This document shows positions 1-64,000 of a stretch of DNA of 64,000 nucleotides, one piece after another (position 1 is the first letter of the stretch; each line of letters begins with the position of its first letter). Both the position numbers and the translations under genes were made by a program. The notes under the pieces were generated by a model, which made no database searches, was not told the origin of the DNA, and worked only from the letters and a program-made list of their open reading frames with translations. The stretch is from a virus (taxonomy: Duplodnaviria; Caudoviricetes), in IMG/VR virus record IMGVR_UViG_2775506876_000001, positions 1 to 64,000 of that record, one strand, 5' to 3'.

Positions 1-3000
1 TTAGATTCCTACAGATCTTCTATAACTATTCGATGTCTGCATCTTGTTCTGAACGGCTAAAATAGATTTTTTGACTGATTGATTGTGAACATCATTTAAG
101 CCTTGTTTGAATTGATCCAGGGTGACGTATTCCTGATTATTTATAACCGTTGTCTGAACATGAACTGTTTTGTTACCTGATTCAGAAACACTGGTAGTAT
201 TTACATTACCTGCTATTCCACCAAAAGCGAAATTACCTAACAATTTATCCGGTGTTAATCCTGCTTTCTCTAGTTCCTTAACACGATCAGCAGGAATCAT
301 TAATTCACCTTGGTGAACCACAGCAAGCATAGGTTTTTTACCTGATTCAGAAAACTCTTTGTTAAATGCTTTCTGAATTTTATGAACACCACCATTACTA
401 TAGTTTGGTATTTCGGTTTCATTTTTGTCTTTTACGATTCCACCATCATAAAATAAACCTCCAAAGATTCCACCAAACAGACTATTAAGTCCGGTGTTTA
501 AGAAACCAGAGAGTATAGAACTAAAGAAATTATCAAACACATCAGAAAGTGAACCGCCTTTAACAATCAAATCTGTTATAGAGTTCGACAAAGACATCAC
601 AGAATTTCTAGCAACGTCTGAGACTGTCTGACCAAAAGTTTTAAACTGATTGTTAACATTTTCAAGGTTGAGATTGTGTATCTCGTTCAGACTGTCCTTG
701 ACTGTTTCAAGTTCTGAAGTGTCTATATTATTGAACTTCATTTGTTCAATCTGTGCATCTAGTTCCCTGAGTTGTTGAGTATATCTCAGATTTTCTTGTA
801 ACACAGCAGCATCTCTAGAAATTTTATTGGCAACGAATGGGTTACCCTGGTCAGTGTTGATTTTAGACGCTCTTGCATTCATTAAATCAATTTTGGGTTG
901 ATTACTAAAAGTTTCTAGAGTTCTTTGACGCTCATTACTGTTCTGAATGTCTTTAATCCGTTGCTCTTGTCTATCGATTTCAAAAGTGTTTTCAATATTT
1001 TGAACCCGTTCATTATTTCGTAAAGCTTCCCTTAAAAATTGCCCTTTCTTTTGACTGTCAGTAAGCTCTTTATTACTGAAGATTTCATTCCGTTTACTTT
1101 GGTAATTATTCAGATTTTCAGTAATTTGGATATCTCTATTAATTTCTAAAGGATTACCCAGGGTATAGTCACTAGAGTTTTTACGCTGCAACAGATTGAT
1201 AGCTGTTAATTGATTTTGTAATTGTTCATTAATTGACTGTCTATCACGTTGTAAATTGTTAGCTTCCCTGGTTAATTCATTTAATTTTTGTTGTCTATCG
1301 GCTTCCTGATAACTTAAATCAATTTGCTCTTGTTTAGCAACAGATTGCTTTTTGTAGAGTTCAATTAATTGATTAGCTTGTTCCTGGGTAATTTCTTTTT
1401 TAAATAAACGCTCTTGAACTGTTGCAATATTTTTCTCTGTTTCTAAATCAACTTGTTTTAAATTGATTATCCTTTCTAGGGATGGAATATTTTTAACTTG
1501 TTCATCAAGCGGGTTAAACTGCTGTAAAGCTTTTAACGATTCAAGTCTAGCTTGTAATTTAGAAATTTCTTGTTGAGTTTCTTCAAAAGTTAGTGATTGT
1601 TGTCTGAAACCTTCCTGTGTGTTGAAAATGTTTTTGGCAGTTTGAACAGATTCATTTTTAAGTTTTTGTAATTCAACTAATTCTTTCTGAGTTTTAGATT
1701 TTTCGGCTAAACTTTGATTTAATCCTTTGGCTATTTCATCTTTAGCTGTTCCTGTAATTTCAGGGTTATTTAGTAGTTGTTTAGCAGTCTGAATCCTATC
1801 ATCAAGTTCAATAATTAATCTGTTTCTGTCTCGAATATTATCATCAAATTCTCGATTTTGTTTTAATAACTGTTCATTAAATGAATCAGTACTAGATTTA
1901 ATCGGATTGCCATATTGATTTTGAACATCCTGAAGCTGTCTAGCGTTCTGTTGTTGCTGATCACCAGAATCCCTTAAACCTCTACGAAATGTTCTTAAAC
2001 TTTGTTCATTTTTACGTAATAATTCAAGCCGTTTACGTTCGGTATCAGCGTCAATTCTTTGTTGTTCCAAAAGCGATCGCTGATTAATCATATCTACATT
2101 AAGATTACTACCCTGGACTACAACATTTTGTAATTGACCAGGGTTTAGGTATTGTCCTTGCAGAGATGCTTGTAGCGCTGGATTCTTGAACTTTTGAAAA
2201 TTATTTGTGAATGTTGATAACTTACCACCACTAGTCCCTTGTCCATAAGGGTTACCTTGAAGAGATGCCCATTCCTTATTTGCTAGAGTCACAGCACCTT
2301 GTATATCACCTTGCATCACTTTTTCTAATGCACCGCGATACATCAATCTGCCAACGGCTAAAACTTCCTGTGATTGTGGTTTAAAATCTCTAAGCCCTAA
2401 TCCTTGATGACCATATTTAGTGTCATCATCCCAAACAAAGTCTATCGTTTGATATCTTCCTGTGGCTGAGCTTGTGTAACCACCAGCACTCACACGTTTT
2501 TTAGGATGACTTGTTAAACTATTTGGGTTAAAACTTTCTCTATTTGTATCACCGAATAAATACCCATAACCCCCGGTAGTGTTTGCGACATCACCAACTT
2601 CTGCAACTGCAACAGCATCTAAGAACGCTCTAACATTTGGATTTTTCAACGCTTCTAAAGCTTTTCTACCCGTTGGTGTTAATCCAGAAAAATCTGACGC
2701 TGAATATTGCGAAGCTTTACCAAATAGATAATTACTCGATTGTGTTTGACCAGGGTTAACGGCTACTTGTCTAGTTAATGGTTGCAACATCTGTCTAGCG
2801 CGATCGCTTCCTGTGTAATTCCAATGCCACGGCTCAAAATCTACACCTTGCTTATTCCCTGGTGTGAACGGCATCTGAAAACCATATCTAGCAGCATTCT
2901 GTTGCAACCATCGGAACTCCTTAGACTTACCAAAACTAGGTTCAACAGAATTGATATCCATTGCAAAACCTGTATGGTGTTGGCTAAATCCTGCCGGAGC

Positions 3001-6000
3001 CGAAACTTTAGCGCGTTGTTCTGGTGTTTGGTTTCTAGCTTTCATTCCAGAGTTAAATACTGTTTCTTGGTCTTTAACGGAACGGAAACCGGAAATAACA
3101 CCGAGATTTACACCTTGTTTAGCAGCATCAGCAGCCATATTTCTAAATGCTGTTGCGGCTTCTTTGTCTAATAATTCGTTTCCAACTTTTACTAAATTTT
3201 CGCGGCTATTTTCTCTATAGGCAAAATGTCCATACTTGGTTATAGGCACTTGGCTAACAGGTTGATTAACAGGTTGATTAACAGGTTGTTGAATATTTAC
3301 ATTTTGATTAGCACTTGTAGCTTGTTGTAATGATTTTAAATATTGCTGAGGCTCAACATATTTACCATTGATTTTCACACCAAAATCTAAGTGTGCGCCT
3401 GTACTTAAACTATCCATTGTAACGGTTGATAATCTTTGCCCAGCATTAACTTGTATAGGCTGTTTAAGATTACCGTTGAACATTTTTTGAAGTTCTGTTA
3501 AATCCAAATGATTGTAAACAATAGTAACTTTGTTACCTTTTGGATCAACTGTATTGATATCAACACCACCACTAGTTGAAGTAATTTGTCTTGCTGTAGC
3601 AGTTCCAGACATTAAAGCTTGTACAACAGCACCTTGACTACCACCTACCCTAGAATCTAAATCAACTTTATTATGTTGTCTAGCACCACCGTCACGTATA
3701 CCGTAAAAACTTTGACCCTGTGATGGTTTGTAGTTGATTATATCTTGGATAGATCTTCCTGCAATCGGACTTGCTATAGCACTATTAGACTGTTGAATAC
3801 CATTAAATAATGATTGTCCTACACTGATTGCAGCACCTAAAGGATTACTAAAAGCGTTAGCAACATTACCTAAAGTTTCAACAATTCCTTGTCCTTGTGT
3901 TAATCCTTGAATCCATTTACCAGTTTGATCAACTATAGAACCAAATATTCCTGATATGTTTGAAAAAACATTTTCTAGAGAATTACTATTTTCTCTGACA
4001 GTTTCTAAAGAACTGCTGAACTGTTTACTTAGTTCTGATGATTCACCGATGTAAATGTTAGTGTCTTTGATAAACCTGTTAGCAATATCTAAATTATCAT
4101 TTTGATTTTGAAATTCTTTTGTTAATTCCGAACTGCTATAAATATTCTCATCAATCACAGAATTAAAAGAATCTAAACCGTCATTAATTAATCCTGTTAT
4201 ATCGTTAGTTTCGTTAAGATTGTCATTCAATCTTTGAACGTTTTGATTATTATCAATACCGTTAAAATCCAGGGTAACAGGTATTTTAGGTAGATTCCCT
4301 GGTAAACTTCTTTGTAATTCTATTTGCTGTTTCAGGTTATCTTGTAACTGGAACTGAGCATCAAGAATTTTAGATTTTTTATCGATTTTATTATTTGCTA
4401 TATCATTTAATTCTTGTAGATTAGCCACAAGACTATCAGCAAACTGAGTAAATATATTATCACCAACATTTGTTAAAACTGTCTTAATTCTATTTTGTTG
4501 TTGTAAAGTCTTGATATCGTTAGCAGATTTTTCAAATTCAATCTTAGATTGTTCAGTCTGTTTAACAATATTTTGATAATATTCGGCAACCTGTTTAGTC
4601 TGTTCTCGTAACTGATTAACTAATTCAAGTTTTGACTGAGCTATCTGAAGTTGTAAAGTGTTTAACTCGTTCTTGTTCTGTTGTAAGTTTGCAAACTCTT
4701 GTAATATGAATTTTTCATTATCTGTTTCAACCTGACTAAGAATCTGGTTGATTCTGGCTATCCCTGTATTAGCATCAACCTTGTAAGCTTCTAGAACATT
4801 AGCTGATTCAGTACCGGATCTAAATAGTTCTTCGGACTGCTTGATTGATTCTGACAGGTTCTTAATTTGACTCTGTATATTGTTTATGTCCAGGGATTGA
4901 TTAATGAATTGTCTGTTCCCTGGTGTAACATTTCCTTTAATATCTGCACTTACAAAAGCTGTCTTATCTCTAGAAATTAAAAAGTCACTTTTTGTTTTTG
5001 TGTCTTGTAACAGAATGTTAACGTCTGTTAAGTTCTTTTTCCAAACATCGAAACTACTTGCAACTTTACCAACAGACTCGGTTATCTGTTGTTGACGCTT
5101 TTCTAAAATTGCTATCTGAGCATCGATTTCTTGATTTTGTCTATTGTACTGGTCTGTTGAAAGTTTGTTTTGATCATAAGATTCTTTAATTAATGGTTTG
5201 ACAGCTTTCAAGCCTCTGATTTGTGCCTCTATAGCACCTTGAATACCTGCAACGGGTTGCAAATTTTTAAATCTTGTATCGAGTAAATCTTTTTCCTGTT
5301 TCTGAAGTTCTTTAAGTCCTTGAACATTTTCAGGATTTAATTGGACAATGGCACGTCTTTTAGCTTGAATTTCAGAAAGTTTTTTATCAGTTTCTACAAC
5401 TAAATCTATTTGTTTCTGAATTTCTGAACTGTTTGTGATTTCTATTAATTTTTCACCAGATTTTAAACCTGTTTTACGTCCTTTTTGAATGTCATCAAAA
5501 GCCTTATTCTCTTTCTCGTTCTGAGTATCGAAAGGATTTAAATACTTTAAAGGATTTGTTAAAACATCTCTACCTAAATCGAGTAACATTTCTTTGTTAC
5601 CCTTTTTAACTTCTTTGCCTGTTTCTATTTTCTTTAACATCGATTCAATATCTTTCAGACCTTTTTCAGATTGTTTTGCAAAATCTGAAGCTGCACCACC
5701 CATATCTGAGAAAGCTATTGTTAATTTTTCAATCGATGTTAAAACTGTTTGGAATACTAGTAATTCAGCACCAAAGTTTAACATTGGTTTGATTGCTGTA
5801 AACATTCCAGACAATGTTACTTGACTAAATTTAGCTTTAACAGTTAATAGATTTAAACTGGCTATTGATTGATAAACACCAGTGATAAACGGCTGCCATA
5901 ACGGTCTAGTTAAAGCGATCGCTAAAAGTTTAACAAAATTTAAAATACTATCGATATTTTTAGATAATAAATCTAAACCTGTTGATGTAGCATTTAAGCT

Positions 6001-9000
6001 TAATTTTTGAAATGGTAAGAATGCTTTACCTGTATTATTTTGTAATTCAAGCAAACTATTATTGAAATTGTTAATTGCAGCTTGGCTAGTTTCTAGTGAT
6101 GCTGGTAAACCTACAATTGATTCGGCTCTAGCTTGTTGTGATGCTTGAATTAATGTCTCTGGACTCAAACCGCCCGGAGTATTTTTAAGCTTTTTAGCTA
6201 ATTGACCGGGTGTTAAACCTTGCGATCGTGCAAATATATTGTAAAACCCTGGTACAGCTTCACCAGCTTGACCCCTTAATTCTTCAGATTGAATACCTTT
6301 AGAAGCCATTTGTTGTACAGCAATACCAAAACGTTCTTGTGTTTGCTTATCAACACTTCTAGTTGCTAGCATCACATTAAAGTTTTCAAGTATCTGTGAA
6401 CTTGGAGCGCCTTCTAAACTGCTGTTTTGTGTAGCTGCTAAAAATCCTGCTGCACCTTCCAATGATTGTCTTATATCAACTTTTAAAGCTTTGGCTTGCT
6501 CGCTGAAACGTTCAAAATTAGTTTTACCAGTTGCACTATCACCAGATGCAAACACAACCTTACGATTAAGGTTTTCCATCTCTGTCGCAACTTGCACACT
6601 AGTTACTAAGAAATCTTTTAATTTTGGTAATACTTCTGTAAGAACTGTGTAAGCTAAACCGAGTTTTGAAACACTAGTTATTAAACTAGTAACTGATTTA
6701 ACAGGATCGTTGATAAAATCTGAAAGAACATTTTTACCGGAATCAAGACCTTTCTTAAAACCAGCAACAACCATTTTACCAATTTCAATAAATACCCTGG
6801 ATGGTGATTGTATTTGATAACCTTTTTTAACTTGTTCAATTGGTTGTTGTACTAAAACTTCCTCAAAAACTTGCTCAACATCTGATGATTGTATTCCTTT
6901 TTCTAAACCTTTTGTAATGTCTTTGGCTACTTGTTTAGATTGTGTAGCGACATTACTAGAATCTATTTGTGGTAAAGGTATTTTAGCTTTTGCAAACTGT
7001 CGCTTAATATTATTTTCAAGTTGGCTAAGTTGTCCAAGCATTTGATTTACTTGAGACGCTTCTGTTGTTCCTATTTTTGGTATATTAGCTTCAGTCCTGA
7101 AAGATTCAATATCAGCTTTAGCTCTTGATGTATTTTCAAGAATTGTTTTAGCTTGTAAAGTTGCTTCAGGAAATTGTTTAGTTTTTAATTGGTCTTTTAA
7201 AGTACCGTACGATTTACCAAAATTATCAACAATCTTTTTAGAATTCTCTAGTGATTGTTTAATTTGTTCATTAGTAAAAGTTTCTATTTTCTTTTGAATT
7301 TCTTGAACAGGTTTTACTATTTCCTGTGAAACATTTTTATTTTCTTTTGGTAAAACTATACCAATTTTAGGATCTAAAAGTTTAGCTTTAGTTTCTAAGA
7401 TTTCTTGTAAAACATTTTGATATTTAGTTTGTGTTATACCAGTTGTTTTACTAGAAACACTATTAACCTGTTTGTAAACAAGGTCTAGTTCTTTGACAAT
7501 ATTATTAGCGACCAGGGAAGCTTCAATTCCTGGTTGTTCTTGTAAATGTTTTAAATAAACTTTCGCTTTCTCAACAGCTTTTTTAATTTCTGATAACTCT
7601 CTGTCATCAGGTTGTAAATCAACAAAGATGTTTTCAAAATCTTGAACTATTTCTTCTAATTCAGATTTAAAATCGTCGGTTGATGTTAATAAATATCTCT
7701 TAATATGTTGTAAATTTTGAAAAGCTGCTGTGGCTAATTGATCTATTTGTTTCGTGTTTAATTGTGATTTATCTTGAGATTTAAAATATTCAGCACCTTT
7801 CCTAAAATCAGTTATTAATTCTGGTGTGACTTTCCCTGGACTACCAAACATGAAATTTTGAAGTTCAGCCACATTAGCATTTCTATAATTTTCGTAGGGA
7901 TGTCCTTTAACACCTAATATTTGTTGCCCTTTAGTTCTCTCAGCAAGTCCTAAACGCCCATACATTTTATTAGTTTCAGCACCTAGATGCTCATCGGGAC
8001 TAATAATTTTTCTATCTTTTTCATCAAAACCACCAATAAATTTTGGTGTACCAACACCTATAAAATCTGATTTATCACCATGCCCTAAAAGCTCCATTAT
8101 TTTATGGGCTTCCTCAGCAGCAAAACCACCACCAGACTCACCCACAAATTTAATTTTAATCTCCGGATTTTTTTCTAATGCTGCTAATGCTTGTGCAGAC
8201 ATCTCTAAAGCGTCTTTAGAATAACCTCTTAATGTTGGTTTACTGATGCTAGTTAACAAAGCTTTTAATTTTTCTGGTGCGTTGTTTAAAGACTCTCTAG
8301 GAATGTCGCTGTCTTCATTCTTAGCCCAAATAACAGCGTTTTTAGGATTATCTTTACTTAATTCGTTTAACCCTGGACTAGAACGCATTTGACCAGAGAC
8401 AAGAGTCTTACCTGACAAACCTCTCGCACCAGCATAACCACCAACAGCTATATAAAGATTTTCCGTTTCATCAGTAACGGCTTTAGTTGATAACATGTCA
8501 GCTTTACCTTTTTTAGCATTCAAAATTTCAAATGCTCTTTCTCTAACTAAAGGTAAAGCTCTTTCTTGTAACGCAATAGTTCTATATTGTTTTAATGATT
8601 CACCAATAGGTTTAGTTATACCTCTTAAAGCTGTTTCTGAAAAAATAGCACCTTTCATTTTTGCAGAAACTACTTCTAATTCTGAAATTAAACTTTTACT
8701 AACATTAGAAAAATCTACATCTTGTGTAGCAGCTTTAATAAAACTGTTAATTTTATCGGTTATTGTATCACCTTTATCTTCTAAAGCTGCTATTATACCA
8801 TCACCAACTTTATAAGCACCTTGTCTCAGTTTTACTGTTAAAATCTGTTGTATTTCATTCGTGGTTTCTATAAATTCTTTGTTTTCAGTAAAATTATTTT
8901 TAACAAATTTACCTGTTTCCCTGGCAGCTTTTCTAAATTGTTGTGCGCTACCAGAACCAAAAGTGTCTCGAATACCTAGAGATAATTGACGCTGAATATT

Positions 9001-9615
9001 AGCACCAATATTTTCTTGAAAACCTGTTACAACATTCCCTATAAAACCTTTTTTATCGTTGGCTTGTTTAACAGCTTTTTCAACTTGTTTAATATGAAAA
9101 GTTAATTCTCTAAAATCGTTTTTTGTGTCCCCAGTACTTTCACGATTTTTTATAGTTACGCTTAATTTACCTTCAGTATTTTTTAAAGCTGTTTCAACTT
9201 GCTCAACAATATTATTTTTATCAATTTTTACAGGAAATCTTGCTGCCTGTAACTCTTTACGAATATTATTTATCTCTCTAAATATTTCAGTATTATCAAT
9301 TTCAAAAGTAACTTTCTGGTTTTGAATCTGTTGTAATTGAAACAAATTTTTATTCAAATTATCCAGATTAGTCAAGTCTGTTCTAGGCTTTATAACATTG
9401 TTTTCATAAAACCTAACAGTTTCTTTTAAATGTCTTTGTTTTAAATCTAAATGTTTATTTAAATCTACTAATCTTGAATCATCAACGTTAACGACCAGGG
9501 TATTAGTCTTTTGTCTAGAAAGCTGTAATAACTGTTTTTGTAATGGTGCAAAATTAGCCTTAATATCAATATAAATAGAATCAATCTCTTGCCCGTTATC
9601 AAAAATTTCAGACAT
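1..9615 (-). CDS. Tape measure protein with alpha/beta-hydrolase-like, M23 peptidase, VanY/M15B peptidase and lambda-R-like lysozyme domains
   Basis: 3204 aa, mostly coiled-coil, downstream of the frameshifted chaperone pair. Motifs: GESGGG; HNKVD..YNHL..GAHLDF; SGFRS..SQHHTG..EPWHW; RAFLDAVAVAE..ATGRYQ..EWASL. Stop codon at 1-3. Confidence 0.9.
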   Translation of the reverse strand: MSEIFDNGQEIDSIYIDIKANFAPLQKQLLQLSRQKTNTLVVNVDDSRLVDLNKHLDLKQRHLKETVRFYENNVIKPRTDLTNLDNLNKNLFQLQQIQNQKVTFEIDNTEIFREINNIRKELQAARFPVKIDKNNIVEQVETALKNTEGKLSVTIKNRESTGDTKNDFRELTFHIKQVEKAVKQANDKKGFIGNVVTGFQENIGANIQRQLSLGIRDTFGSGSAQQFRKAARETGKFVKNNFTENKEFIETTNEIQQILTVKLRQGAYKVGDGIIAALEDKGDTITDKINSFIKAATQDVDFSNVSKSLISELEVVSAKMKGAIFSETALRGITKPIGESLKQYRTIALQERALPLVRERAFEILNAKKGKADMLSTKAVTDETENLYIAVGGYAGARGLSGKTLVSGQMRSSPGLNELSKDNPKNAVIWAKNEDSDIPRESLNNAPEKLKALLTSISKPTLRGYSKDALEMSAQALAALEKNPEIKIKFVGESGGGFAAEEAHKIMELLGHGDKSDFIGVGTPKFIGGFDEKDRKIISPDEHLGAETNKMYGRLGLAERTKGQQILGVKGHPYENYRNANVAELQNFMFGSPGKVTPELITDFRKGAEYFKSQDKSQLNTKQIDQLATAAFQNLQHIKRYLLTSTDDFKSELEEIVQDFENIFVDLQPDDRELSEIKKAVEKAKVYLKHLQEQPGIEASLVANNIVKELDLVYKQVNSVSSKTTGITQTKYQNVLQEILETKAKLLDPKIGIVLPKENKNVSQEIVKPVQEIQKKIETFTNEQIKQSLENSKKIVDNFGKSYGTLKDQLKTKQFPEATLQAKTILENTSRAKADIESFRTEANIPKIGTTEASQVNQMLGQLSQLENNIKRQFAKAKIPLPQIDSSNVATQSKQVAKDITKGLEKGIQSSDVEQVFEEVLVQQPIEQVKKGYQIQSPSRVFIEIGKMVVAGFKKGLDSGKNVLSDFINDPVKSVTSLITSVSKLGLAYTVLTEVLPKLKDFLVTSVQVATEMENLNRKVVFASGDSATGKTNFERFSEQAKALKVDIRQSLEGAAGFLAATQNSSLEGAPSSQILENFNVMLATRSVDKQTQERFGIAVQQMASKGIQSEELRGQAGEAVPGFYNIFARSQGLTPGQLAKKLKNTPGGLSPETLIQASQQARAESIVGLPASLETSQAAINNFNNSLLELQNNTGKAFLPFQKLSLNATSTGLDLLSKNIDSILNFVKLLAIALTRPLWQPFITGVYQSIASLNLLTVKAKFSQVTLSGMFTAIKPMLNFGAELLVFQTVLTSIEKLTIAFSDMGGAASDFAKQSEKGLKDIESMLKKIETGKEVKKGNKEMLLDLGRDVLTNPLKYLNPFDTQNEKENKAFDDIQKGRKTGLKSGEKLIEITNSSEIQKQIDLVVETDKKLSEIQAKRRAIVQLNPENVQGLKELQKQEKDLLDTRFKNLQPVAGIQGAIEAQIRGLKAVKPLIKESYDQNKLSTDQYNRQNQEIDAQIAILEKRQQQITESVGKVASSFDVWKKNLTDVNILLQDTKTKSDFLISRDKTAFVSADIKGNVTPGNRQFINQSLDINNIQSQIKNLSESIKQSEELFRSGTESANVLEAYKVDANTGIARINQILSQVETDNEKFILQEFANLQQNKNELNTLQLQIAQSKLELVNQLREQTKQVAEYYQNIVKQTEQSKIEFEKSANDIKTLQQQNRIKTVLTNVGDNIFTQFADSLVANLQELNDIANNKIDKKSKILDAQFQLQDNLKQQIELQRSLPGNLPKIPVTLDFNGIDNNQNVQRLNDNLNETNDITGLINDGLDSFNSVIDENIYSSSELTKEFQNQNDNLDIANRFIKDTNIYIGESSELSKQFSSSLETVRENSNSLENVFSNISGIFGSIVDQTGKWIQGLTQGQGIVETLGNVANAFSNPLGAAISVGQSLFNGIQQSNSAIASPIAGRSIQDIINYKPSQGQSFYGIRDGGARQHNKVDLDSRVGGSQGAVVQALMSGTATARQITSTSGGVDINTVDPKGNKVTIVYNHLDLTELQKMFNGNLKQPIQVNAGQRLSTVTMDSLSTGAHLDFGVKINGKYVEPQQYLKSLQQATSANQNVNIQQPVNQPVNQPVSQVPITKYGHFAYRENSRENLVKVGNELLDKEAATAFRNMAADAAKQGVNLGVISGFRSVKDQETVFNSGMKARNQTPEQRAKVSAPAGFSQHHTGFAMDINSVEPSFGKSKEFRWLQQNAARYGFQMPFTPGNKQGVDFEPWHWNYTGSDRARQMLQPLTRQVAVNPGQTQSSNYLFGKASQYSASDFSGLTPTGRKALEALKNPNVRAFLDAVAVAEVGDVANTTGGYGYLFGDTNRESFNPNSLTSHPKKRVSAGGYTSSATGRYQTIDFVWDDDTKYGHQGLGLRDFKPQSQEVLAVGRLMYRGALEKVMQGDIQGAVTLANKEWASLQGNPYGQGTSGGKLSTFTNNFQKFKNPALQASLQGQYLNPGQLQNVVVQGSNLNVDMINQRSLLEQQRIDADTERKRLELLRKNEQSLRTFRRGLRDSGDQQQQNARQLQDVQNQYGNPIKSSTDSFNEQLLKQNREFDDNIRDRNRLIIELDDRIQTAKQLLNNPEITGTAKDEIAKGLNQSLAEKSKTQKELVELQKLKNESVQTAKNIFNTQEGFRQQSLTFEETQQEISKLQARLESLKALQQFNPLDEQVKNIPSLERIINLKQVDLETEKNIATVQERLFKKEITQEQANQLIELYKKQSVAKQEQIDLSYQEADRQQKLNELTREANNLQRDRQSINEQLQNQLTAINLLQRKNSSDYTLGNPLEINRDIQITENLNNYQSKRNEIFSNKELTDSQKKGQFLREALRNNERVQNIENTFEIDRQEQRIKDIQNSNERQRTLETFSNQPKIDLMNARASKINTDQGNPFVANKISRDAAVLQENLRYTQQLRELDAQIEQMKFNNIDTSELETVKDSLNEIHNLNLENVNNQFKTFGQTVSDVARNSVMSLSNSITDLIVKGGSLSDVFDNFFSSILSGFLNTGLNSLFGGIFGGLFYDGGIVKDKNETEIPNYSNGGVHKIQKAFNKEFSESGKKPMLAVVHQGELMIPADRVKELEKAGLTPDKLLGNFAFGGIAGNVNTTSVSESGNKTVHVQTTVINNQEYVTLDQFKQGLNDVHNQSVKKSILAVQNKMQTSNSYRRSVGI

Positions 9616-10816: not shown

Positions 10817-11761
10817 ATAAGTTTAGCTTATACATATACTATTTTAAGCATTTATACTTACTTGTACTACTGTAATAGTACAGATATTCTCAATAACTCG
10901 AATATTCTCAATAAGACTACAAAATTTTTTGTAGTTTTTTGTAATAGTTTTTGTAGAAATTACAAACTACAAAAACCTTATGTAGCAAGGATTTTGTAAT
11001 AGTTTTTGTAGATTTTGTAGTTTTGAGCCGGATATAAATCTCTAGAGCTTTGTAGTATGTCTGTAATATAAAAACAGGTAGTTTTGTAGTACAAGAAAAT
11101 CTTATATATCAAGACTTATATGAATATCTAGTTTTCTATGGTCAGAGAAAAATAATTAAAAAATTATGTAGTCCAGGGTATGTAATCAGTAAAAAACCTA
11201 AATAGTTATAAATACTTAAACTAGTACAAATAATCTATTTAATTTGTATTACATATATAAAACATAAAGAAGTATAAGAAAAACTTATATTAATTTATCC
11301 TTTATATAACTAGTACAAATTTATAAGTAAAAATACTTATTTAGATTTTTTATGATTTACTCAGGTTTTTGTTAGTACAACTACCCTGGACTACATAATT
11401 TTTTGATTATTTTTCTCTAGCCAGATTAAATCATAGATTTCTATAAGCCTTTGATAGTACTAGTTTGTATAAATTTTACTAGTACACTTTGATAGTACAC
11501 CTGTACTAGTACACCTGTAGAGATTTATATCCGGCTCAAAACTACAAAATCTACAAAAACTATTACAAAAACCTTGCTACATAAGGTTTTTGTAGTTTGT
11601 AATTTCTACAAAAACTATTACAAAAAACTACAAAATTTTTTGTAGTCTTATTGAGAATATCGAGCTTATTGAGAATATCTGTACTATTACAGTAGTACTT
11701 AATAAGTAAAAATACTCTAGTACAGTTATTTGCAATAAGATGTTTTATTGACAATAGGTAG
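10817..11761. repeat. Nested inverted-repeat element, copy 1 (~945 bp)
   Basis: 181-bp near-perfect outer arms at 10864-11044 and 11518-11698; inner arms at ~11144-11180 and 11382-11418; near-identical to copies 2 and 3. Confidence 0.95.
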
Positions 11762-12517: not shown

Positions 12518-12907
12518 TTTCTAAAACTTGAACAAATGTTATCCCTGGTCAAAAACAACGAGTAAAAAAAATGAACGTTTGTAAAGCTATTCAATGTCCT
12601 TATTTTAACGCTAAAACTAATAATTACGGATGTCAAAGATATCAAGTTTCAAACCATTGTCATTTGATTAAAGACTTTCAATTTTTAGCACCAACACAGT
12701 ATGTTTTAGTTTGTCAAGAAACGACAGAATTAGATAAAATTAAATCGGTCAACAAAGAATATTTTTTAACTGATGAAAAATATCAGGATGATAAAAAGTT
12801 TTTAGAAACTCATTCTGGTTGGTTTAACGCTCATAGCTTTAAAGTTGGAAATCTGATTTAACCAATTTCTAAAACTTGAATAACTGTTATCCCTGGTCAA
12901 AAACAAC
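12516..12907. repeat. 44-bp direct repeats (12516-12559, 12864-12907)
   Basis: aatttctaaaacttgaaYaaMtgttatccctggtcaaaaacaac, 2 mismatches. Confidence 0.9.
12571..12861 (+). CDS. Hypothetical Cys-rich protein
   Basis: 96 aa, C-x4-C..C..HCH; flanked by 44-bp direct repeats. Confidence 0.6.
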   Translation: MNVCKAIQCPYFNAKTNNYGCQRYQVSNHCHLIKDFQFLAPTQYVLVCQETTELDKIKSVNKEYFLTDEKYQDDKKFLETHSGWFNAHSFKVGNLI

Positions 12908-12959
12908 CAGGGATTTTTTATTGTTACAGATCAAGCTGCAAAACTAGTCTATATTACCC

Positions 12960-30671: not shown

Positions 30672-31784
30672 TAGGGCATTCTAGACCAGGGTAAAAGCAT
30701 GTATGAATCTAGGGTACTTAGATAATCTAGAACCTTTTAACTATCTATTGTCATTAAAACATCTTATTGCAAATAACTGTACTAGAGTATTTATGCTTAT
30801 TAAGTACTACTGTAATAGTACAGATATTCTCAATAAGCTCAATATTCTCAATAAGACCACAAAATTTTTTGTAGTTTTTTGTAATGGTTTTTGTAGAAAT
30901 TACAAACTACAAAAACCTTATGTAGCAAGGATTTTGTAATAGTTTTTGTAGATTTTGTAGTTTTGAGCCGGATATAAATCTCTACAGGTGTACTAGTACA
31001 GGTGTACTATCAAAGTGTACTAGTAAAATTTATACAAACTAGTACTATCAAAGGCTTATAGAAATCTATGATTTAATCTGGCTAGAGAAAAATAATCATA
31101 AATTTTTGTAGTCCAGGGTAGTTGTACTAACAAAAACCTGAGTAAATCATAAAAAATCTAAATAAGTATTTTTACTTATAAATTTGTACTAGTTATATAA
31201 AGGATAAATTAATATAAGTTTTTCTTATACTTCTTTATGTTTTATATATGTAATACAAATTAAATAGATTATTTGTACTAGTTTAAGTATTTATAACTAT
31301 TTAGGTTTTTGTTAGTACAACTACCCTGGGCTACATAATTTTTTGATTATTTTTCTCTGACCATAGAAAACTAGATATTCATATAAGTCTTGATATATAA
31401 GATTTTCTTGTACTACAAAACTACCTGTTTTTATATTACAGACATACTACAAAGCTCTAGAGATTTATATCCGGCTCAAAACTACAAAATCTACAAAAAC
31501 TATTACAAAATCCTTGCTACATAAGGTTTTTGTAGTTTGTAATTTCTACAAAAACTATTACAAAAAACTACAAAATTTTTTGTAGTCTTATTGAGAATAT
31601 TGAGCTTATTGAGAATATCTGTACTATTACAGTAGTACAAGTAAGTATAAATGCTTAAAATAGTATATGTATAAGCTAAACTTATCAATGAAAACTACAA
31701 AAAGTCTGAAAGCCTTGTAACAACTAGAATCTTTATTCAGCTTGATAAACTAATCGTGCTGCCACCCTGGTCTAGAATGCCCTA
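30672..31784. repeat. Nested inverted-repeat element, copy 2 (inverted relative to copies 1 and 3)
   Basis: Core ~30741-31703 is the reverse complement of copy 1; additional perfect 21-bp outer IR at 30672-30692 and 31764-31784. Confidence 0.95.
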
Positions 31785-44864: not shown

Positions 44865-45368
44865 TTAAATTTTTACCATTTTTCCAACAAAACCTAAGTC
44901 TTGAAAATTATCTTTAAACCTGGTAATAACACTAGATTTATTTGATAAACACATAAACGCGTTGTAATTACGGGGACTTTTACCAGGTTCCATAGTTTTC
45001 CCATCTATCCAGGGTATTCTATTTCTTACAATTACAGTAGGATATGTCAGCAATTCAGGAACTTGAAATAACACAGACTCGCTAAAAGCGGCAAAAATAA
45101 TTGAAACGTGTTTATGTTCTTGAATAGTAGCGATCGCTTTGATAGCCCAAAGTTTAGCAGGTGTCGGTGGATTGGTATACACAAAATTATGTTTCCAAGA
45201 TATTTCTAAACCGTTAACACCTTTGATAGGGCAAGGATCGAAAATGTCTTTAGTGTCAAAAGTTGAGTAAACTTTATTCCAGATATACCCTGGTGTGTAG
45301 TACTCTTGTGATGGTTTGTGATTTCCAAGTAATGAATGATTATTCATAATTTTAAGCTGCTTTAGCAA
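44865..45368 (-). CDS. Phage-type DNA N6-adenine methyltransferase-like protein
   Basis: EYYTP, FDPCP, NGL..SW, VYTNPPT (variant of NPPY). Confidence 0.7.
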   Translation of the reverse strand: MLKQLKIMNNHSLLGNHKPSQEYYTPGYIWNKVYSTFDTKDIFDPCPIKGVNGLEISWKHNFVYTNPPTPAKLWAIKAIATIQEHKHVSIIFAAFSESVLFQVPELLTYPTVIVRNRIPWIDGKTMEPGKSPRNYNAFMCLSNKSSVITRFKDNFQDLGFVGKMVKI

Positions 45369-47026: not shown

Positions 47027-47030
47027 AAAA

Positions 47031-50542: not shown

Positions 50543-51314
50543 AATAAAAAATCCCTAGTTGTTATCCAGGGATTTAAAAAGTCACTTTTTGAATTAAATC
50601 AATCGTTTCTCTCTTGTGTTTGTAAAGTGTTTTTAATAACACGTTTCATATTCTTTTCGCAACAAAAAAACATAGACTTAAACAAATCAATATCATTTTC
50701 AACAGCTATCAAAAAGATAGATTGAATAATGTTAACAGAGATTTCAAAAAACTTTTCAGGATCAATATCAATGTTAAAAAGAATTGATTTTTTATAAAGT
50801 TCACAAAGGTTAAAAACATTTTCTGACAAATCTAGATTAAGATTTTCCGGGAATCCATTATATATATTAGCAAAAGTGAATTTCTCATCATAAGCCAATA
50901 TAGCTAAATAAGCTAAAACATCACATAATTCTAAACCTAAATTATGTGTGTCTTTATCAGTTTTATCTTTGATTTTCAAAATAGATAAAACTTCACCAGC
51001 TTCACCAGCAACACCTAAAATTAAAAGAGTTGTTTTGTGAATTTCATCAACTTTATAATTTTGTTGATTTAAAATAAAAAATTTCTGAAAGCTTCTAAGC
51101 AAAGAATAAATTGATAATCCATTTTTTTCTTTTGAATTACAAGAATTTTCCATAGATGTTAACAAATTGTTCATGTCTTTTATTACTTCTGTCATTTCTT
51201 TAATCCTTGTTTTTTGTCCGACAAATATATACTAACTAATAATATTATAAATGTCAACAAGTTTAATAAAAAATCCCTAATTGTTATCCAGGGATTTAAA
51301 AAGTCACTTTTTGA
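50543..51314. repeat. 50-bp direct repeats flanking the MazG-like gene (50543-50592, 51265-51314)
   Basis: aataaaaaatccctaRttgttatccagggatttaaaaagtcactttttga, 1 mismatch; terminator-like hairpin plus palindrome. Confidence 0.9.
50599..51195 (-). CDS. MazG-like NTP pyrophosphohydrolase
   Basis: LGVAGEAGEV..ELCDVLAYL. Confidence 0.75.
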   Translation of the reverse strand: MTEVIKDMNNLLTSMENSCNSKEKNGLSIYSLLRSFQKFFILNQQNYKVDEIHKTTLLILGVAGEAGEVLSILKIKDKTDKDTHNLGLELCDVLAYLAILAYDEKFTFANIYNGFPENLNLDLSENVFNLCELYKKSILFNIDIDPEKFFEISVNIIQSIFLIAVENDIDLFKSMFFCCEKNMKRVIKNTLQTQERND

Positions 51315-56275: not shown

Positions 56276-56373
56276 GATTTTAAATCCTCTAAATTTTCTA
56301 AGTTAATTGTGTTACTTGACTAACACCCTAGAACATCTAAATAATTTAGATGTTCTAAAGTAATATTCAAATT

Positions 56374-57606: not shown

Positions 57607-57800
57607 AACGTTTAAGGTAATCTGAAAAGTGACTTTTTGTTTTGTCCGACAAATCTATAATATGTCGGACAAAATTTTATAACATCCGTAAATATACTGA
57701 AATTATAATAAAACTTACAAGTATCCTATTAAACAAAAAATCTCTAGTGTTAGACTAGAGATAAAATTTTAAAAAGTGACTTTTTGATTTTTATCGATTT

Positions 57801-57965
57801 TTAGCTTTTAACACTTTTGGATAATATAAAAGGTTGTGGTAAATCTATCAACACTCGTAATATTTCGGATATAGTTGATTCTGTGGCACTAGAGATAGTT
57901 TCTAGCTTAGTAAATTGCTCATCAGTAACCCTTACCGATATTTTAACCAATTTATTATTTTTCAC
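57801..57965 (-). CDS. CopG-like ribbon-helix-helix protein, not in the ORF track
   Basis: GTG start with AAGGTG RBS; KISVRVTDEQFTKLETIS..TISEILRVLID. Confidence 0.7.
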   Translation of the reverse strand: MKNNKLVKISVRVTDEQFTKLETISSATESTISEILRVLIDLPQPFILSKSVKS

Positions 57966-58068
57966 GATTTCACCTTATATAATAATGTCCTACATTAAAT
58001 TTAGCATAAAAAATTCCCTGGACAATAGTAATTTTATCCAGGGAATAAACGCTTAACCGATTTGAAAA

Positions 58069-59370: not shown

Positions 59371-59603
59371 ATTTTTTATAGCACCTATCGGCTTAAACTG
59401 TCTAGTGTTTACTAAATAATTTTACCACGATTCAAAAAGTCACTTTTTAAACTTTTATCTATAATAATAAGTCAAAAAGCATAAAAAATCTAGTTTATAT
59501 AAGTAATTTTTATATAATCTGTAAAATAAATATTATAAAAAGAAAAATAATTAAGTAATTTTAGCAATTGAAATTGCTTGTTTAAACTGTAATCATTTAA
59601 ATA

Positions 59604-59813
59604 GTGTTGATACTTCGCTTGAACTCTAGGATTATGTTAAAGAAACCAAAGAAAATTTCCGACAAATTAATGGGGTTTTTTGTTACTCCAGAGGAAAAAA
59701 TATTAATCATCCAAGCTAAACCTGATGATGTAAGTATGTCAGAATTTTTAAAATCAATAGTGATGCCAATTGTTACGAAAATGGTGATTTTAAAAAGAGC
59801 AAAATCACCTTAA
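59604..59813 (+). CDS. Small RHH/MobC-like DNA-binding protein
   Basis: GFFVTPEEK..I...VSMSEFL. Confidence 0.5.
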   Translation: MLILRLNSRIMLKKPKKISDKLMGFFVTPEEKILIIQAKPDDVSMSEFLKSIVMPIVTKMVILKRAKSP

Positions 59814-59861
59814 AGTTTTACAAAAGGTTTAAAGCCTTTTGTAAAACGCTTTAACAATTTG

Positions 59862-62552
59862 TCAAAGTTTTAACAATCCATTAACCTGATCAAACTCTGC
59901 TAAACCATGTTTAGCAACGTCTAGAAAAAGCTCAAGTATTTCTGGTTTTCTCAAATATTTCTTGTCTTTATTCCCATATTCTCTCAATACCTGAGCTTTT
60001 CTACAAAATGCATCTTTATAAAAATCTGATGCTTCGATAAATTGTTTTTGTTTATTTTCAAGAATTTTTTTACATTTTTTGATAAATTCTTGAAAAAGAA
60101 AGAGTTTTGATTGATCTATGTTTTCTAACTTATCCGTTAGGCTATGTTTGTAAACTAAACTAGCTTTTTCAATCAACCACATCCCAATTGCACAAGCTCT
60201 TAACATTGTTTCGTCACTCATGTGTTGTAAATCTTTATCAACACCTTCAGCAATTCTTAAGCAATGTAATGTTAATGCAATTCTGGCAACTTGTTCTGGT
60301 ATACGGTTAAGCCATTGCCCAAAAGCTTCATTAGTGTCAATGACATTTCTAGATTTCTCTAAAGTCTGATTTCTGAATGCTGCCCAGATAGCGTGGCTTG
60401 TCTTGGTGTTTTTGACCAGGGTATTAACTGGTTCACCCTTAACAGGATCTACAACGTGTGAAGCGTTTTGTATCTTTTTGTAAAGATTCAGACAGATTTC
60501 AGGAAAATCGAAATTAGTCTGAATATCTTCTAGAAACTTGTTGGGAACCACAATCGGTTCGGCAATCGGGACATAAAGGAATCTTCCACAGATACCTGAC
60601 CCAACATTATTATCGATATCAAAAGTATTATAGAAGCGTTTGGTTTGAATCGTACTGAGCATTGAGCATCTAAAAAAGTCGGCTTCTTCTTCAGATGTGC
60701 TGACACGATTTCTTAAGGTTGTGTCACCATTCCAAATACGGATGAACTGATCTAGCGCATTCCCTTTCTTGTTGTTGTTAATGGTATCAATGCCACTTAA
60801 AAAGTCTGTTACTTCATCAGGACTAATTAGCAAGCCATAATTTTTATGTTCCCCAGACATTGTGCTAATAGCTTGTAAGCTCGAATCAGTCACGATGTAT
60901 GGGTGGGCTTTTGTAGGTGTTGGACACATAACTTCCCGAATCTTTACCATATCCATATCATCGGGAATGCTAGATTGATATGTTTGTTGTAAGTACTGGG
61001 CTTCTTTTTCATCTTTCTTTAAGGTTTTCCAATACTCTGAAAAAGCGTTATAAGCTTTGTTATCTTGAATATATGTGTTATTGGCTTCGACAGCCAAACG
61101 CTTAAAAGACTTTTTGAAAGGATCAACGGCTAAAGATTTACCATCCGTAGAACCACCTAGAAAAATAGTAAATATATTACTCGAACAAATACCAGTACTA
61201 TTAAAATTAAAATTTGTGAACTTGCTTATTACACTACTAGAACAAGTCAGTAGTGACATAATTAAGTATTCTTCAGGTATATTATTTTCTACACCATATC
61301 TTTTTAAATCTTTTAAAATTGATGTACCGGATAATACATAGTCAGCACTTAATTTAGATGTCTGTGCTTTCTGTATATCAGACAATCCAGATTGGAAAGT
61401 GACTTTTTGATCCTCTGAATAATCTACCTCAGACAACATATTTTCAATTGTCTGGATCATTTCCTGATCTCTATACCCTGGTTCACGATCAAAAGTCTGT
61501 CTAAAAGCTAAACCAGCGATTATAGGTAGTTCGGCTGAAGTGAAATTTTTGACTTTTAAGCGGTTAACGTTTTCCTGTAACTCTTGGAATTTATCTAGAT
61601 TTTTCCTTTCTTGGTGTTTTTGTAAATTCTGATCAAGATTAAAAGCTGAATTCCATTCTTGAGCTAGTTCTTTAAGTTCTTGATCATCCAGGGTAGGCTC
61701 AGGCTTACTGTTAAAAGCACTATTCCATATTGTTTCTGATTCGCTTCTATCTATAGAAGGATTACAAGCTTGGCAATACTGCTCAAAAAGTTCATCAGCA
61801 GCACCCTGGTATTTAATACCTAGCTGATTTAATCTGTTTTCAGTACCAACTAAATTCACAGCTAATTTGTAGCCTGAGTTGTTTCTAGAACCTTGTTCAG
61901 CACCATTAATAATCAATTGTCTATCGGAACCAGTCAGAAAAAATTCGAGTATTGGAATATCTTGTCTAAAATCTGGTAAAGCTGATGATACTTGCTTTTC
62001 CGGTTTAGCTTCAGATTTACCGTTAGATTCTAGATAACTATATATAGGGTGATTTTTAGATATCGTTGCCACTGGTAAATGATTTGAATAATAAGGTTGA
62101 TTAGTTTTCGGATGGATGCCAGCAATAACTTGATAATGTTTACCCGTTCTAAATTCCAGTTGTTCTTGATCACCTGTAGCGATCGTGAAATGTTCAAAAG
62201 GTTTTTCGATTTTGTAAATTAAAGCTTCTCTTTGTCCAGGGTTAGAACTAATCGTTAGTGTCTCTGGTAGTTCAAAACCTAGCAAATCAAAGAATTCTAT
62301 AGCTGTAATACCATCCTTATCGATCGCTATGTATTCATTACCCAGAACTATAGAAAGCATAGTCATATCAGGGTAATCCGAAAGCTTATCTAGAGTTATA
62401 GTTCCGTTTTGCCAACCTTTAGCACCTTTACAAGGAATTTTCTTATCGTTTAAACCTTTCTTGCAAGGCACAAAAGCTGTAAAAACTAAGCTGGCTATTT
62501 GATTTAGGTCAATTACTGTAGCAGTAAACTTTGTAGCGGTTGTTGTTTTCAT
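59862..62552 (-). CDS. Primase-polymerase / PriCT / DUF3987-type helicase replication protein
   Basis: K.P...GWQ, IDKDG, LPETLT, LEFRTG.HYQVIAG.HP; GSRNN; GGSTDGKS, PDE, GRFLY. Confidence 0.85.
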   Translation of the reverse strand: MKTTTATKFTATVIDLNQIASLVFTAFVPCKKGLNDKKIPCKGAKGWQNGTITLDKLSDYPDMTMLSIVLGNEYIAIDKDGITAIEFFDLLGFELPETLTISSNPGQREALIYKIEKPFEHFTIATGDQEQLEFRTGKHYQVIAGIHPKTNQPYYSNHLPVATISKNHPIYSYLESNGKSEAKPEKQVSSALPDFRQDIPILEFFLTGSDRQLIINGAEQGSRNNSGYKLAVNLVGTENRLNQLGIKYQGAADELFEQYCQACNPSIDRSESETIWNSAFNSKPEPTLDDQELKELAQEWNSAFNLDQNLQKHQERKNLDKFQELQENVNRLKVKNFTSAELPIIAGLAFRQTFDREPGYRDQEMIQTIENMLSEVDYSEDQKVTFQSGLSDIQKAQTSKLSADYVLSGTSILKDLKRYGVENNIPEEYLIMSLLTCSSSVISKFTNFNFNSTGICSSNIFTIFLGGSTDGKSLAVDPFKKSFKRLAVEANNTYIQDNKAYNAFSEYWKTLKKDEKEAQYLQQTYQSSIPDDMDMVKIREVMCPTPTKAHPYIVTDSSLQAISTMSGEHKNYGLLISPDEVTDFLSGIDTINNNKKGNALDQFIRIWNGDTTLRNRVSTSEEEADFFRCSMLSTIQTKRFYNTFDIDNNVGSGICGRFLYVPIAEPIVVPNKFLEDIQTNFDFPEICLNLYKKIQNASHVVDPVKGEPVNTLVKNTKTSHAIWAAFRNQTLEKSRNVIDTNEAFGQWLNRIPEQVARIALTLHCLRIAEGVDKDLQHMSDETMLRACAIGMWLIEKASLVYKHSLTDKLENIDQSKLFLFQEFIKKCKKILENKQKQFIEASDFYKDAFCRKAQVLREYGNKDKKYLRKPEILELFLDVAKHGLAEFDQVNGLLKL

Positions 62553-62916
62553 ATATTTATTACTTCAGACCTGAATCTATTATACTATGTTTGTAAAAAT
62601 CATATAATACTGATGTAAAAGCTTTACTTATACCACAATCTCTATAATATCATTAAAATTTATAATGCTTCTGAACAGTATTATCTGTGTTATAGTTAAA
62701 TCAACATAAAATATTACTTCAAACCTAATTTTCAGCCAGCCCTAAAAGTTGGCTGATTTTTTTATCTAAAATTTGTCGGACAAATCAAAAAGTGACTTTT
62801 TGATTTTTAAATTTAAAGTTTGTAAATACCTATATGAAAATTGTGTAAATACCTATAGACGTTAGTAACAGCACTAAGTATTATATATAGTTACACAAAT
62901 CTCACAGGTTAGATAT

Positions 62917-63150
62917 ATGGCTGTCAAGTCTTTAGTCAGACCAACCAATCACCAGCTATCACAATCACAAATAGAGTTTTACCAAAATCTGAGACTCCAG
63001 AAAGCTTACAAAGAAGCCGAAATGTATAAGAGAAACTGCTTGAGAATAAAATCAGAACATTGTATATTTTGCAACTCTCAGAAGTTAGTTTTAACACCTC
63101 TATCAAAGGAAAGGACTTTTAAATGTTCAAGTTGCAACAGAAGTTTCTAG
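62917..63150 (+). CDS. Zinc-ribbon protein
   Basis: CIFCNS..FKCSSCNRSF. Confidence 0.65.
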   Translation: MAVKSLVRPTNHQLSQSQIEFYQNLRLQKAYKEAEMYKRNCLRIKSEHCIFCNSQKLVLTPLSKERTFKCSSCNRSF

Positions 63151-63353
63151 TATATTTTGTATATTTTGAATAAAATCAGATATATTACATCATTAATCAT
63201 CAGCTTGGGCATCTATAAGTATCAACACTAATAACCCTGTCAGAATTCTGGCAGGTTTTTTAGTAAATTTTGTTCTATAACACATTCTTGTAAAATTGTC
63301 AATTAAATATTGAATAACAGTGTGTTTGACCAGGGTAAACGCTGATTATAGTA

Positions 63354-64000
63354 TTTTTGTAGTTTTCATTGATTTTCATTGATAAGTTTAGCTTATACAC
63401 ATGTTATTTTAAGCATTTATACTTACTTGTACTACTGTAATAGTACAGATATTCTCAATAAGCTCAATATTCTCAATAAGACTACAAAAAATTTTGTAGT
63501 TTTTTGTAATAGTTTTTGTAGAAATTACAAACTACAAAAACCTTATGTAGCAAGGATTTTGTAATAGTTTTTGTAGATTTTGTAGTTTTGAGCCGGATAT
63601 AAATCTCTAGAGCTTTGTAGTATGTCTGTAATATAAAAACAGGTAGTTTTGTAGTACAAGAAAATCTTATATATCAAGGCTTATATGAATATCTAGTTTT
63701 CTATGGTCAGAGAAAAATAATCAAAAAATTATGTAGCCCAGGGTAGTTGTACTAACAAAAACCTAAATAGTTATAAATACTTAAACTAGTACAAATAATC
63801 TATTTAATTTGTATTACATATATAAAACATAAAGAAGTATAAGAAAAACTTATATTAATTTATCCTTTATATAACTAGTACAAATTTATAAGTAAAAATA
63901 CTTATTTAGATTTTTTATGATTTACTCAGGTTTTTGTTAGTACAACTACCCTGGACTACAAAAATTTATGATTATTTTTCTCTAGCCAGATTAAATCATA
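63354..64000. repeat. Nested inverted-repeat element, copy 3 (truncated by the window end; same orientation as copy 1)
   Basis: Near-identical to 10817-11434; both inner arms present. Confidence 0.95.

Follow-up and report, generated by a model that had tools for sequence, protein, structure and literature searches.

Here, we analyzed a 64,000-nucleotide stretch of viral DNA (the window; positions 1 to 64,000 of IMG/VR record IMGVR_UViG_2775506876_000001, Caudoviricetes) and found that the asymmetric hexamer CCAGGG/CCCTGG, together with its A/T flanks, very probably constitutes a selected, prophage-private and orientation-specific DNA signal (WCCAGGGW) that is read by a phage-encoded factor. 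The coordinates given below are window positions, while some counts cover the whole 77.8-kb prophage to which the window belongs (135 or 136 sites). As to what the signal does, we tentatively favor recognition or priming sites for the phage's own PrimPol-helicase.

Enrichment of CCAGGG in an integrated prophage

The hexamer occurs 111 times in the window (54 on the plus strand and 57 on the minus strand), first at 117 and last at 63954, whereas 100 dinucleotide-preserving shuffles gave a mean of 5.87 copies (standard deviation 2.30, maximum 12). The initial annotation of this DNA had put the number at roughly 100 over the same span, mostly as WCCAGGG, and the tally and the span were both accurate. 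The 5′ flanking base is A or T at 106 of the 111 sites. The 3′ flanking base is A or T at all 111, and a weaker T/T/G-or-A preference extends further upstream, in a window whose composition is 68% A+T. Since these A/T flanks are constrained, the functional word is effectively WCCAGGGW. The same annotation had described other contexts of the Dcm-type site CCWGG as much rarer. They are indeed the minority, with 26 of 137 CCWGG sites lying outside the hexamer and 111 within it, but those 26 are simply at the chance level, neither depleted nor enriched, as about 27 sites in total are expected from the window base counts. The enrichment therefore belongs to CCAGGG and not to the Dcm-type core. Across the whole element, CCAGGG is the most over-represented hexamer by a wide margin (135 copies versus 7.9 under an order-2 Markov model).

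Gene calls from our heuristic greedy open reading frame (ORF) caller (88 genes, 86% coding) placed 111 of 135 element sites within coding sequences (CDS) and 24 in intergenic DNA, consistent with the earlier description of the hexamer in both kinds of DNA. The CDS sites fall in all six frames (sense 23/14/21, antisense 6/28/19), and their orientation is unrelated to gene direction, with 58 sense and 53 antisense sites. A codon- and dipeptide-preserving null, which the initial annotation had set as a refuting test, left the enrichment in place: synonymous-codon shuffles that kept the protein and the per-gene codon usage yielded 12.8 ± 3.4 sites (200 shuffles, maximum 24), and codon-order shuffles yielded 5.9 ± 2.6, versus the 111 sites observed in CDS. 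Moreover, among the 383 positions at which the encoded protein would allow the hexamer (synonymous-permissive positions), 112 actually carry CCAGGG/CCCTGG. CCAGGG is a selected DNA-level signal and not a codon or dipeptide effect.

The window corresponds to C1:638735-702734, minus strand, of a 9.96-Mb assembly in two contigs. The host chromosome has a GC content of 41.4%, nearly lacks GGGACC/GGTCCC (71 and 80 copies) and carries HIP1 (GCGATCGC) at 0.97 per kb, a signature that we take to be that of a heterocystous (Nostocales) cyanobacterium. High density of the hexamer is limited to about C1:625-705 kb, where the GC content drops to 29-35%. This region holds an element of 77.8 kb and 31.6% GC (window about −1123 to 76715), bracketed by a 28-bp direct repeat at window −1151 and 76688, outside the window, which on one flank lies within a 632-aa host ORF. 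Outside the other prophage end, beyond a tyrosine integrase located just inside one end of the element, there is a truncated AAA_23/SMC_N fragment of 116 aa. Its genes encode TerL, portal, protease, major capsid protein, a J-like tail protein, a 3204-aa ORF, dCTP deaminase, ThyX in two pieces, PolB, RusA, an intein-bearing SF2 helicase and a PrimPol-helicase, and an HTH protein is encoded at 34853-35482. Given the putative attachment-site (att) repeat, the integrase and the phage gene content, the element is therefore an integrated prophage.

The 136 prophage sites (68 on each strand) are spread evenly, at 14-19 per 10 kb across all modules. Their density of 1.747 per kb compares with 0.263 per kb in the rest of the chromosome, where the roughly 2,580 host copies have unconstrained flanks, show no consistent strand skew in twenty 0.5-Mb bins and exceed the composition-based expectation by a ratio of only about 1.2. 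The word is thus phage-specific, as had been proposed, and the host enrichment that had been named as a second refuting test was not found. Other host regions with 8-12 sites per 10 kb were attributed to tandem repeats or chance.

Two explanations are weakened by this restriction to the prophage. The first, which we consider quite unlikely, is a strand-specific chemical self-mark, placed on the single A of CCAGGG by a modifying enzyme such as an asymmetric-site methyltransferase of a Type III Mod-like or BREX-like kind; each strand would then need a mark series of its own. In its favor, adenine occurs on just one of the two motif strands, which is also the case for Type III and BREX sites, the motif includes CCWGG, the two strands are spaced independently (see below), and the host encodes several PF00145 and PF01555 methyltransferases. 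The prophage has also been shaped by host restriction. GGWCC is absent from the whole prophage (0 versus 33 expected from composition) and is avoided by the host chromosome too, while HIP1 is in excess (20 versus 0.14 expected), so that the prophage carries the host's restriction-avoidance and HIP1 signatures despite a 10% lower GC content. However, a whole-genome six-frame search covering these two methyltransferase families placed none of its 8 PF00145 and 7 PF01555 matches in the prophage (C1:626-704 kb), and the ORF suspected earlier of methylating the motif (44865..45368) matches neither Pfam nor PHROGs. With a host enzyme, the restriction of the enrichment to the prophage would be left unexplained, and nothing known requires modification sites to be enriched 20-fold.

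The second explanation, which has very little probability, is that the sites are a neutral by-product of biased repair or mutation that converts near-cognate words to the motif, following Elhai's model for HIP1. The cyanobacterial setting, in which HIP1 is hyper-abundant in host and prophage alike, and the Dcm-type core of the motif both speak for it. Conversion should, however, deplete the one-base neighbors of the motif, whereas TCAGGG, CTAGGG and CCAGAG are 2-3 times enriched, with their W flanks mostly kept (five of the TCAGGG copies stem from CRISPR repeats). In addition, a whole-genome six-frame search for PF03852 (Vsr) returned nothing anywhere, the element lacks a PF00145 or PF01555 methyltransferase, and no enrichment is seen in the host chromosome, on which the same repair enzymes act. 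Neither would such a drive predict the spacing regularities described in the next section. The one-base variants were rejected as hairpin partners of perfect sites, as only 4/33, 6/20 and 6/32 lie within 60 nt of one (random positions, 19%), and their tendency to fill same-strand gaps is weak and mixed (pooled P = 0.02, with CTAGGG in the opposite direction).

Spacing of the sites on each strand

Sites in the same orientation follow each other at mean gaps of 1141 and 1147 bp, or about one site per 1.14 kb per strand, and these gaps are more regular than random placement would give: the coefficient of variation (CV) is 0.62 and 0.64 on the two strands versus 0.98 ± 0.11 at random, and none of 5000 simulations reached the observed values. 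Same-strand pairs closer than 300 bp number 8, compared with 35.1 expected (P = 4e-8), whereas opposite-strand pairs within that distance number 34, compared with 35.6 expected. The permissive positions display the same behavior. The fraction that carries the hexamer rises with distance from the nearest same-strand site (3/72 below 150 bp, 10/61 at 150-300, 15/71 at 300-500, 48/101 at 500-800 and 22/43 above 1200 bp), but follows no trend with distance from the nearest opposite-strand site (35/132, 16/74, 21/65, 26/75 and 6/20 in the same classes). Because avoidance is confined to the same strand, a plus site cannot replace a minus site, and a nearby copy in the same orientation is redundant. 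The reader acts in an orientation- or strand-specific manner, and the rule narrows the function to an orientation-specific DNA transaction. No large-scale strand switch was detected along the element. The hexamer had earlier been proposed to be a counterpart of HIP1 or Chi, with a primase site, a recombination hotspot and a packaging signal among the possibilities. The even per-strand spacing fits the orientation-dependent candidates on that list, namely the primase site and the Chi-like hotspot, whereas the analogy with HIP1, which is palindromic and host-wide, is weak; for a packaging signal or a methyl self-mark we found no positive evidence.

Some sites form inverted pairs. Ten such pairs lie within 50 bp (5.9 expected), six of them inside ORFs, with little complementarity beyond the hexamer, and a few intergenic ones form terminator-like hairpins. 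The pairs within the 3204-aa ORF (see the table below) show that inverted pairs are not confined to terminators. The initial annotation had located the hexamer in the arms of repeated elements, in an outer inverted repeat and in several terminator stems, and we recovered it in each of these: in three palindromic elements, with about 46 nt conserved around a hexamer in each arm and 211 bp between the hexamers of the two arms; in the pair 30686/31765; and in 3 of 15 terminator-like stems found in 44000-63999. The palindromic elements possibly have a counterpart in the inverted repeats reported on either side of the invertible segment in A-1(L)-like phages. Separately, five convergent pairs (plus then minus) are 104-108 bp apart (1158/1266, 2750/2857, 35871/35977, 41458/41566 and 76426/76530, the last outside the window), where about one would be expected by chance on a rough estimate; their sequences are otherwise unrelated.

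Table. Positions of the hexamer sites, associated structures and genes discussed in the text
Feature	Position	Strand	Remarks
CCAGGG/CCCTGG site set	117..63954	both	111 in the window; 25 more of the prophage's 136 outside
3204-aa ORF	1..9615	minus	19 sites on both strands; inverted pairs 2111/2138, 4269/4297, 4890/4918
Palindromic element copy 1	11173..11389		hexamers 11173/11384, one per arm
Intergenic inverted pair, terminator-like	12891..12912		16 nt apart; hairpin followed by T-run
Palindromic element copy 2	31113..31329		hexamers 31113/31324; outer inverted pair with hexamer 30686/31765
ORF, earlier methylase candidate	44865..45368	minus	not treated as part of the system
Terminator-like hairpin	50549..50575	minus	hexamer paired with one-base variant; second copy 51271-51297
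Terminator-like hairpin, 13 pairs	58013..58046	minus	stem formed by inverted pair 58016/58038
PrimPol-helicase, 896 aa	59862..62552	minus	leading candidate reader of the motif
Palindromic element copy 3	63738..63954		hexamers 63738/63949, one per arm

Three further features of the prophage were recorded. The ThyX gene (Pfam Thy1) is split over two plus-strand ORFs, 33031-33570 and 33936-34745, which match profile positions 8-127 and 60-189; the two are separated by about 365 bp that include a small ORF, an arrangement that could reflect an insertion, an intron or a duplication, and no intron was detected at the Rfam gathering threshold. The SF2 helicase carries an intein (Pfam PT-HINT and Intein_splicing, residues 146-270) and is encoded outside the window, at about 67636-69600 (L023:14135-16099). 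A CRISPR mini-array at 30200-30518 on the minus strand comprises four DR5 repeats (Rfam), a visible fifth degenerate repeat and four spacers. Its repeats are 88% identical to those of the Nostoc phage N1 array, its spacers had no match in the phage collection searched, and no cas genes are nearby.

Iterated words in related phages and orientation-dependent alternatives

The prophage PolB is 43-46% identical to that of the Nostoc, Anabaena and Dolichospermum myophages N1, A1/A-1(L), Elbi, YongM/YongM2 and Dfl-JY23, which carry asymmetric iterated 11-mers of their own. When 8-mer cores were counted over the first 50 kb per genome, CCCCGGAGTCA was found to occur 76 times in Elbi, 75 in YongM, 67 in A1 and 64 in Dfl-JY23, and CCCCGGAATCA occurs 73 times in N1; these relatives are not independent samples. 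Like CCAGGG, the 11-mers are phage-private and asymmetric, have a GC-rich core in an AT-rich genome and recur about once per 1.3-1.45 kb per strand. The whole genomes of N1 and Elbi, also analyzed by these cores, contain 93 and 104 sites, with per-strand gap CVs of 0.43-0.67 and mean gaps of 1.33-1.45 kb. The avoidance is likewise confined to the same strand: pairs closer than 300 bp number 1 versus 19.6 expected on the same strand and 30 versus 20.0 on opposite strands in N1, and 3 versus 23.2 and 26 versus 23.6, respectively, in Elbi. Inverted pairs that form hairpins are also common to both, although the two systems differ in word length (11 nt versus 6-8 nt) and in placement. About half of the N1-group sites are intergenic (47/93 in N1 and 42/104 in Elbi), mostly as hairpin-forming inverted pairs 18-20 nt apart, whereas only 24 of 135 are intergenic in the prophage. 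Apart from the main word, A1 (L031) and Dfl-JY23 (L032) contain about 25 copies of the over-represented near-palindrome AGAGTSACTCT, in part a 3′ extension of the main 11-mer (...GGAGTCACTCT).

The alignable DNA of Elbi and N1 is 73% identical, and their sites were compared one by one. Among the 104 Elbi sites, 60 align to N1; there, the N1 variant stands at 44, the Elbi variant at 1 and neither of them at 15. At aligned sites, the ten fixed motif columns are 89.6% identical versus 76.1% for the flanks. The sites have thus been kept in position, while one base changed in concert genome-wide. According to the host fields of their records, N1, A1 and Elbi overlap in host, and the conserved positions, the concerted base change and the overlapping hosts together therefore point to a phage-encoded reader that would coevolve with its sites.

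The gene content of the prophage overlaps in part with that of this group. The non-structural proteins common to the prophage and N1/Elbi are dCTP deaminase (57-61% identical between the prophage and the group), PolB, the SF2 helicase (24%) and a 161-aa protein encoded at 54712-55197, for which a single-sequence model predicts an all-helical fold at low confidence (predicted local distance difference test score 50.5) and a search of PDB sequences gave nothing meaningful. RusA is present on both sides, and the DR5 CRISPR mini-array is common to the prophage and N1. A 263-aa protein that the prophage has in common with N1 and Elbi matches the A-1(L) neck fiber gp82N (PDB 8keg, E 4.7e-8) and is thus structural. 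The structural genes and primase of the prophage are not detectably related to those of the N1 group: TerL had no match in N1 or Elbi, and the major capsid protein had no tblastn match in the phage collection.

Searches for closer relatives of the prophage covered several collections. Megablast of 20 kb gave no match in the phage collection, a single 26%-identical locus emerged when viral, genome and metagenome contigs were scanned with TerL, and neither primase alignment scans of genome and viral contigs nor a search of viral contigs with a 26-nt stretch of the palindromic element returned anything. Across 401 genomes of the order, TerL had a match in 13 (own genome included), the best being 38% identical, and the primase in 38 (own genome included), all distant. 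The two best TerL loci, which are prophage-like (G109 and G384; 36-38% identical), contained no CCAGGG excess and no iterated word of this kind. A PolB homolog was found in 82 of 389 family genomes, and the 100 kb around it in four of them chosen for their large contigs (G487, G409, G417 and G669) contained HIP1-type words only. Among protein-database relatives, the primase reached 53% and 41% identity and the 161-aa protein 70% and 61%.

Cluster A mycobacteriophage stoperators are phage-private asymmetric motifs that coevolve with a phage protein, and by analogy the sites could form a transcription roadblock grid, in which a prophage repressor bound to asymmetric sites stops RNA polymerase in one direction; sites recurring in both orientations about every 1.1 kb would then silence both strands in lysogeny. 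It speaks for this reading that the element, with its integrase and 28-bp att repeat, is an integrated prophage. Regular spacing within each orientation is also what an orientation-dependent block would produce, and the way in which one base differs in concert between N1 and Elbi is reminiscent of repressor-stoperator coevolution in mycobacteriophages. We nevertheless consider such a grid unlikely. Stoperators are 13-14 bp long, number about 20-36 copies, are mostly intergenic and are co-oriented with transcription, whereas the prophage carries 136 copies of a 6-8 bp word, 111 of 135 of them in CDS, with no orientation relative to genes. Furthermore, four sites lie within the integrase ORF and the density is uniform over all modules, the host copies of the hexamer would titrate the repressor or block host genes, and no repressor was identified among the prophage protein annotations.

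For the motifs of A-1 and N-1, the stoperator idea is not new. Chenard et al. (2016; PMC4916379), in the parts of that paper available to us, reported a PHIRE analysis that gave 43 A-1 motifs and 21 N-1 motifs, confined to sequence upstream of genes, and described these asymmetric sequences as "putative promoter motifs" and possible stoperators; within those parts, only intergenic copies are noted. The portion consulted of Shi et al. (2026; bioRxiv 10.64898/2026.02.14.705889) reports an invertible 30-kb segment in the N1/A-1 phage group and does not describe the iterated word. A full-text literature search with the 11-mers returned only unrelated primer lists among the matches listed, and the supplementary files of both papers might list positions.

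A Chi-like role is less probable again, and we regard it as improbable. The motif would switch a translocating helicase-nuclease, either host AddAB-like or phage-encoded, from degradation to recombination and thereby protect the phage DNA irrespective of the end from which the enzyme enters. The word resembles Chi in being short, asymmetric and over-represented, and Chi, too, is active in a single orientation. If genomes are circularly permuted, sites in either orientation would be required throughout, and the host encodes a pair of adjacent large PD-(D/E)XK proteins at C1:547-552 kb that is consistent with AddAB. Chi, however, is a word of the host chromosome whose distribution is skewed with replication, whereas CCAGGG is enriched in the prophage only, the host being at chance level and without skew. 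No RecC was detected, no RecBCD- or AddAB-like enzyme was seen in the prophage annotation, and no Chi known to us is as long as the N1-group 11-mers. The different motifs of N1, A1 and Elbi, despite their overlapping listed hosts, argue further against a host reader.

A candidate reader and comparison with known systems

The reading that we favor, with the tentativeness stated at the outset, assigns the motif to the phage's own replication machinery, most likely to the 896-aa PrimPol-helicase. In this protein, Pfam DUF3987 covers residues 426-802 (E 1.8e-33), PHROGs matches assign residues 28-335 to primase or polymerase-primase and residues 424-800 to helicase, and four of four database homologs carry PF09250 (Prim-Pol) together with PF13148; a search of PDB sequences gave no match. 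Primases are the classic strand-specific, sequence-selective readers of DNA. Under the proposed mechanism, the GC-rich word in an AT-rich genome would be a template site at which the PrimPol-helicase binds or starts a primer, such that either strand would be primed about once per Okazaki-fragment length when it serves as the lagging-strand template. A second nearby site on the same strand would add nothing and decay, while a site on the opposite strand would serve a different template and so remain unaffected; redundancy on the same template strand would thus account for both the same-strand avoidance and the opposite-strand independence. Intergenic inverted pairs would have been reused as hairpin terminators. 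The per-strand spacings of 1.14-1.45 kb match the sizes of bacterial and phage Okazaki fragments, and a GC-rich word in a genome of 31.6% GC would have to be written in by selection. As a supporting point, neither the primase nor the word of the prophage is related to that of the N1 group.

Several points weigh against this assignment. Known primase sites are, to our knowledge, about 3 nt long, so that a site of 6-8 nt or 11 nt would be unusually long. The PrimPol-helicase is a candidate only, connected to the motif by reasoning from sequence, and the prophage primase had no match among N1/Elbi proteins (blastp E 1e-4, phmmer E 0.05), leaving a shared reader family unsupported. The intergenic hairpin pairs that make up about half of the N1 and Elbi sites are not explained by priming alone. 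Equal site density on the two strands would require forks moving in both directions everywhere, which is assumed here, and no close prophage relative was found in which the conservation of site positions could be compared.

Extended to the group as a whole, the proposal is somewhat more doubtful: possibly, these Nostocales phages program their own replication by a private word, different from phage to phage and repeated about once per kb per strand, which would be an obligatory binding or start site for the PrimPol-helicase. If so, Okazaki priming or distributed origins would be programmed in sequence, only self DNA would be replicated, and each shift in the specificity of the reader, as between N1 and Elbi, would force about 100 sites to coevolve with it in concert. 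The concerted difference between these two phages (44 of 60 sites) provides a natural specificity swap in a tractable system, Anabaena PCC 7120 and its phages. Whatever the reader, the motif can serve as a marker for recognizing such prophages and for studying the coevolution of a protein with about 100 sites.

Genome-wide iterated words such as Chi, the FtsK-orienting polar sequences (KOPS), the DNA uptake sequences (DUS) and uptake signal sequences (USS), and HIP1 are landmarks of bacterial chromosome biology. In the literature searched, we found no earlier description of a phage-private counterpart with a per-strand spacing rule, for which same-strand avoidance combined with opposite-strand independence offers a clean quantitative signature. 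HIP1 is similar to CCAGGG in its frequency of roughly one copy per kb, within genes as well as outside them, and in being found in this kind of organism, but CCAGGG is asymmetric and prophage-only, with its two orientations spaced independently. HIP1 was reportedly linked to cognate methyltransferases by Elhai in 2015, whereas the prophage has no such enzyme of the PF00145 or PF01555 families. The DUS of Neisseria and the USS of Haemophilus likewise occur about once per kb, in both orientations and within genes; their inverted pairs also serve as terminators, and their spacing is reported to be even. They differ in being 9-12 nt long, chromosomal and read by competence proteins, whereas a phage has no obvious uptake step. 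Primase sites, finally, are read on one strand, as exemplified by 5′-GTC-3′ for T7 gp4 primase and GTG for pRN1 ORF904, and their required spacing is the Okazaki-fragment length, with which the 1141 and 1147 bp per strand of the prophage are compatible. The primase sites known to us are trinucleotides that are frequent by chance, none of them a long word in need of enrichment; if the reader of WCCAGGGW is a primase, this prophage would be the first genome that must write its own priming sites.

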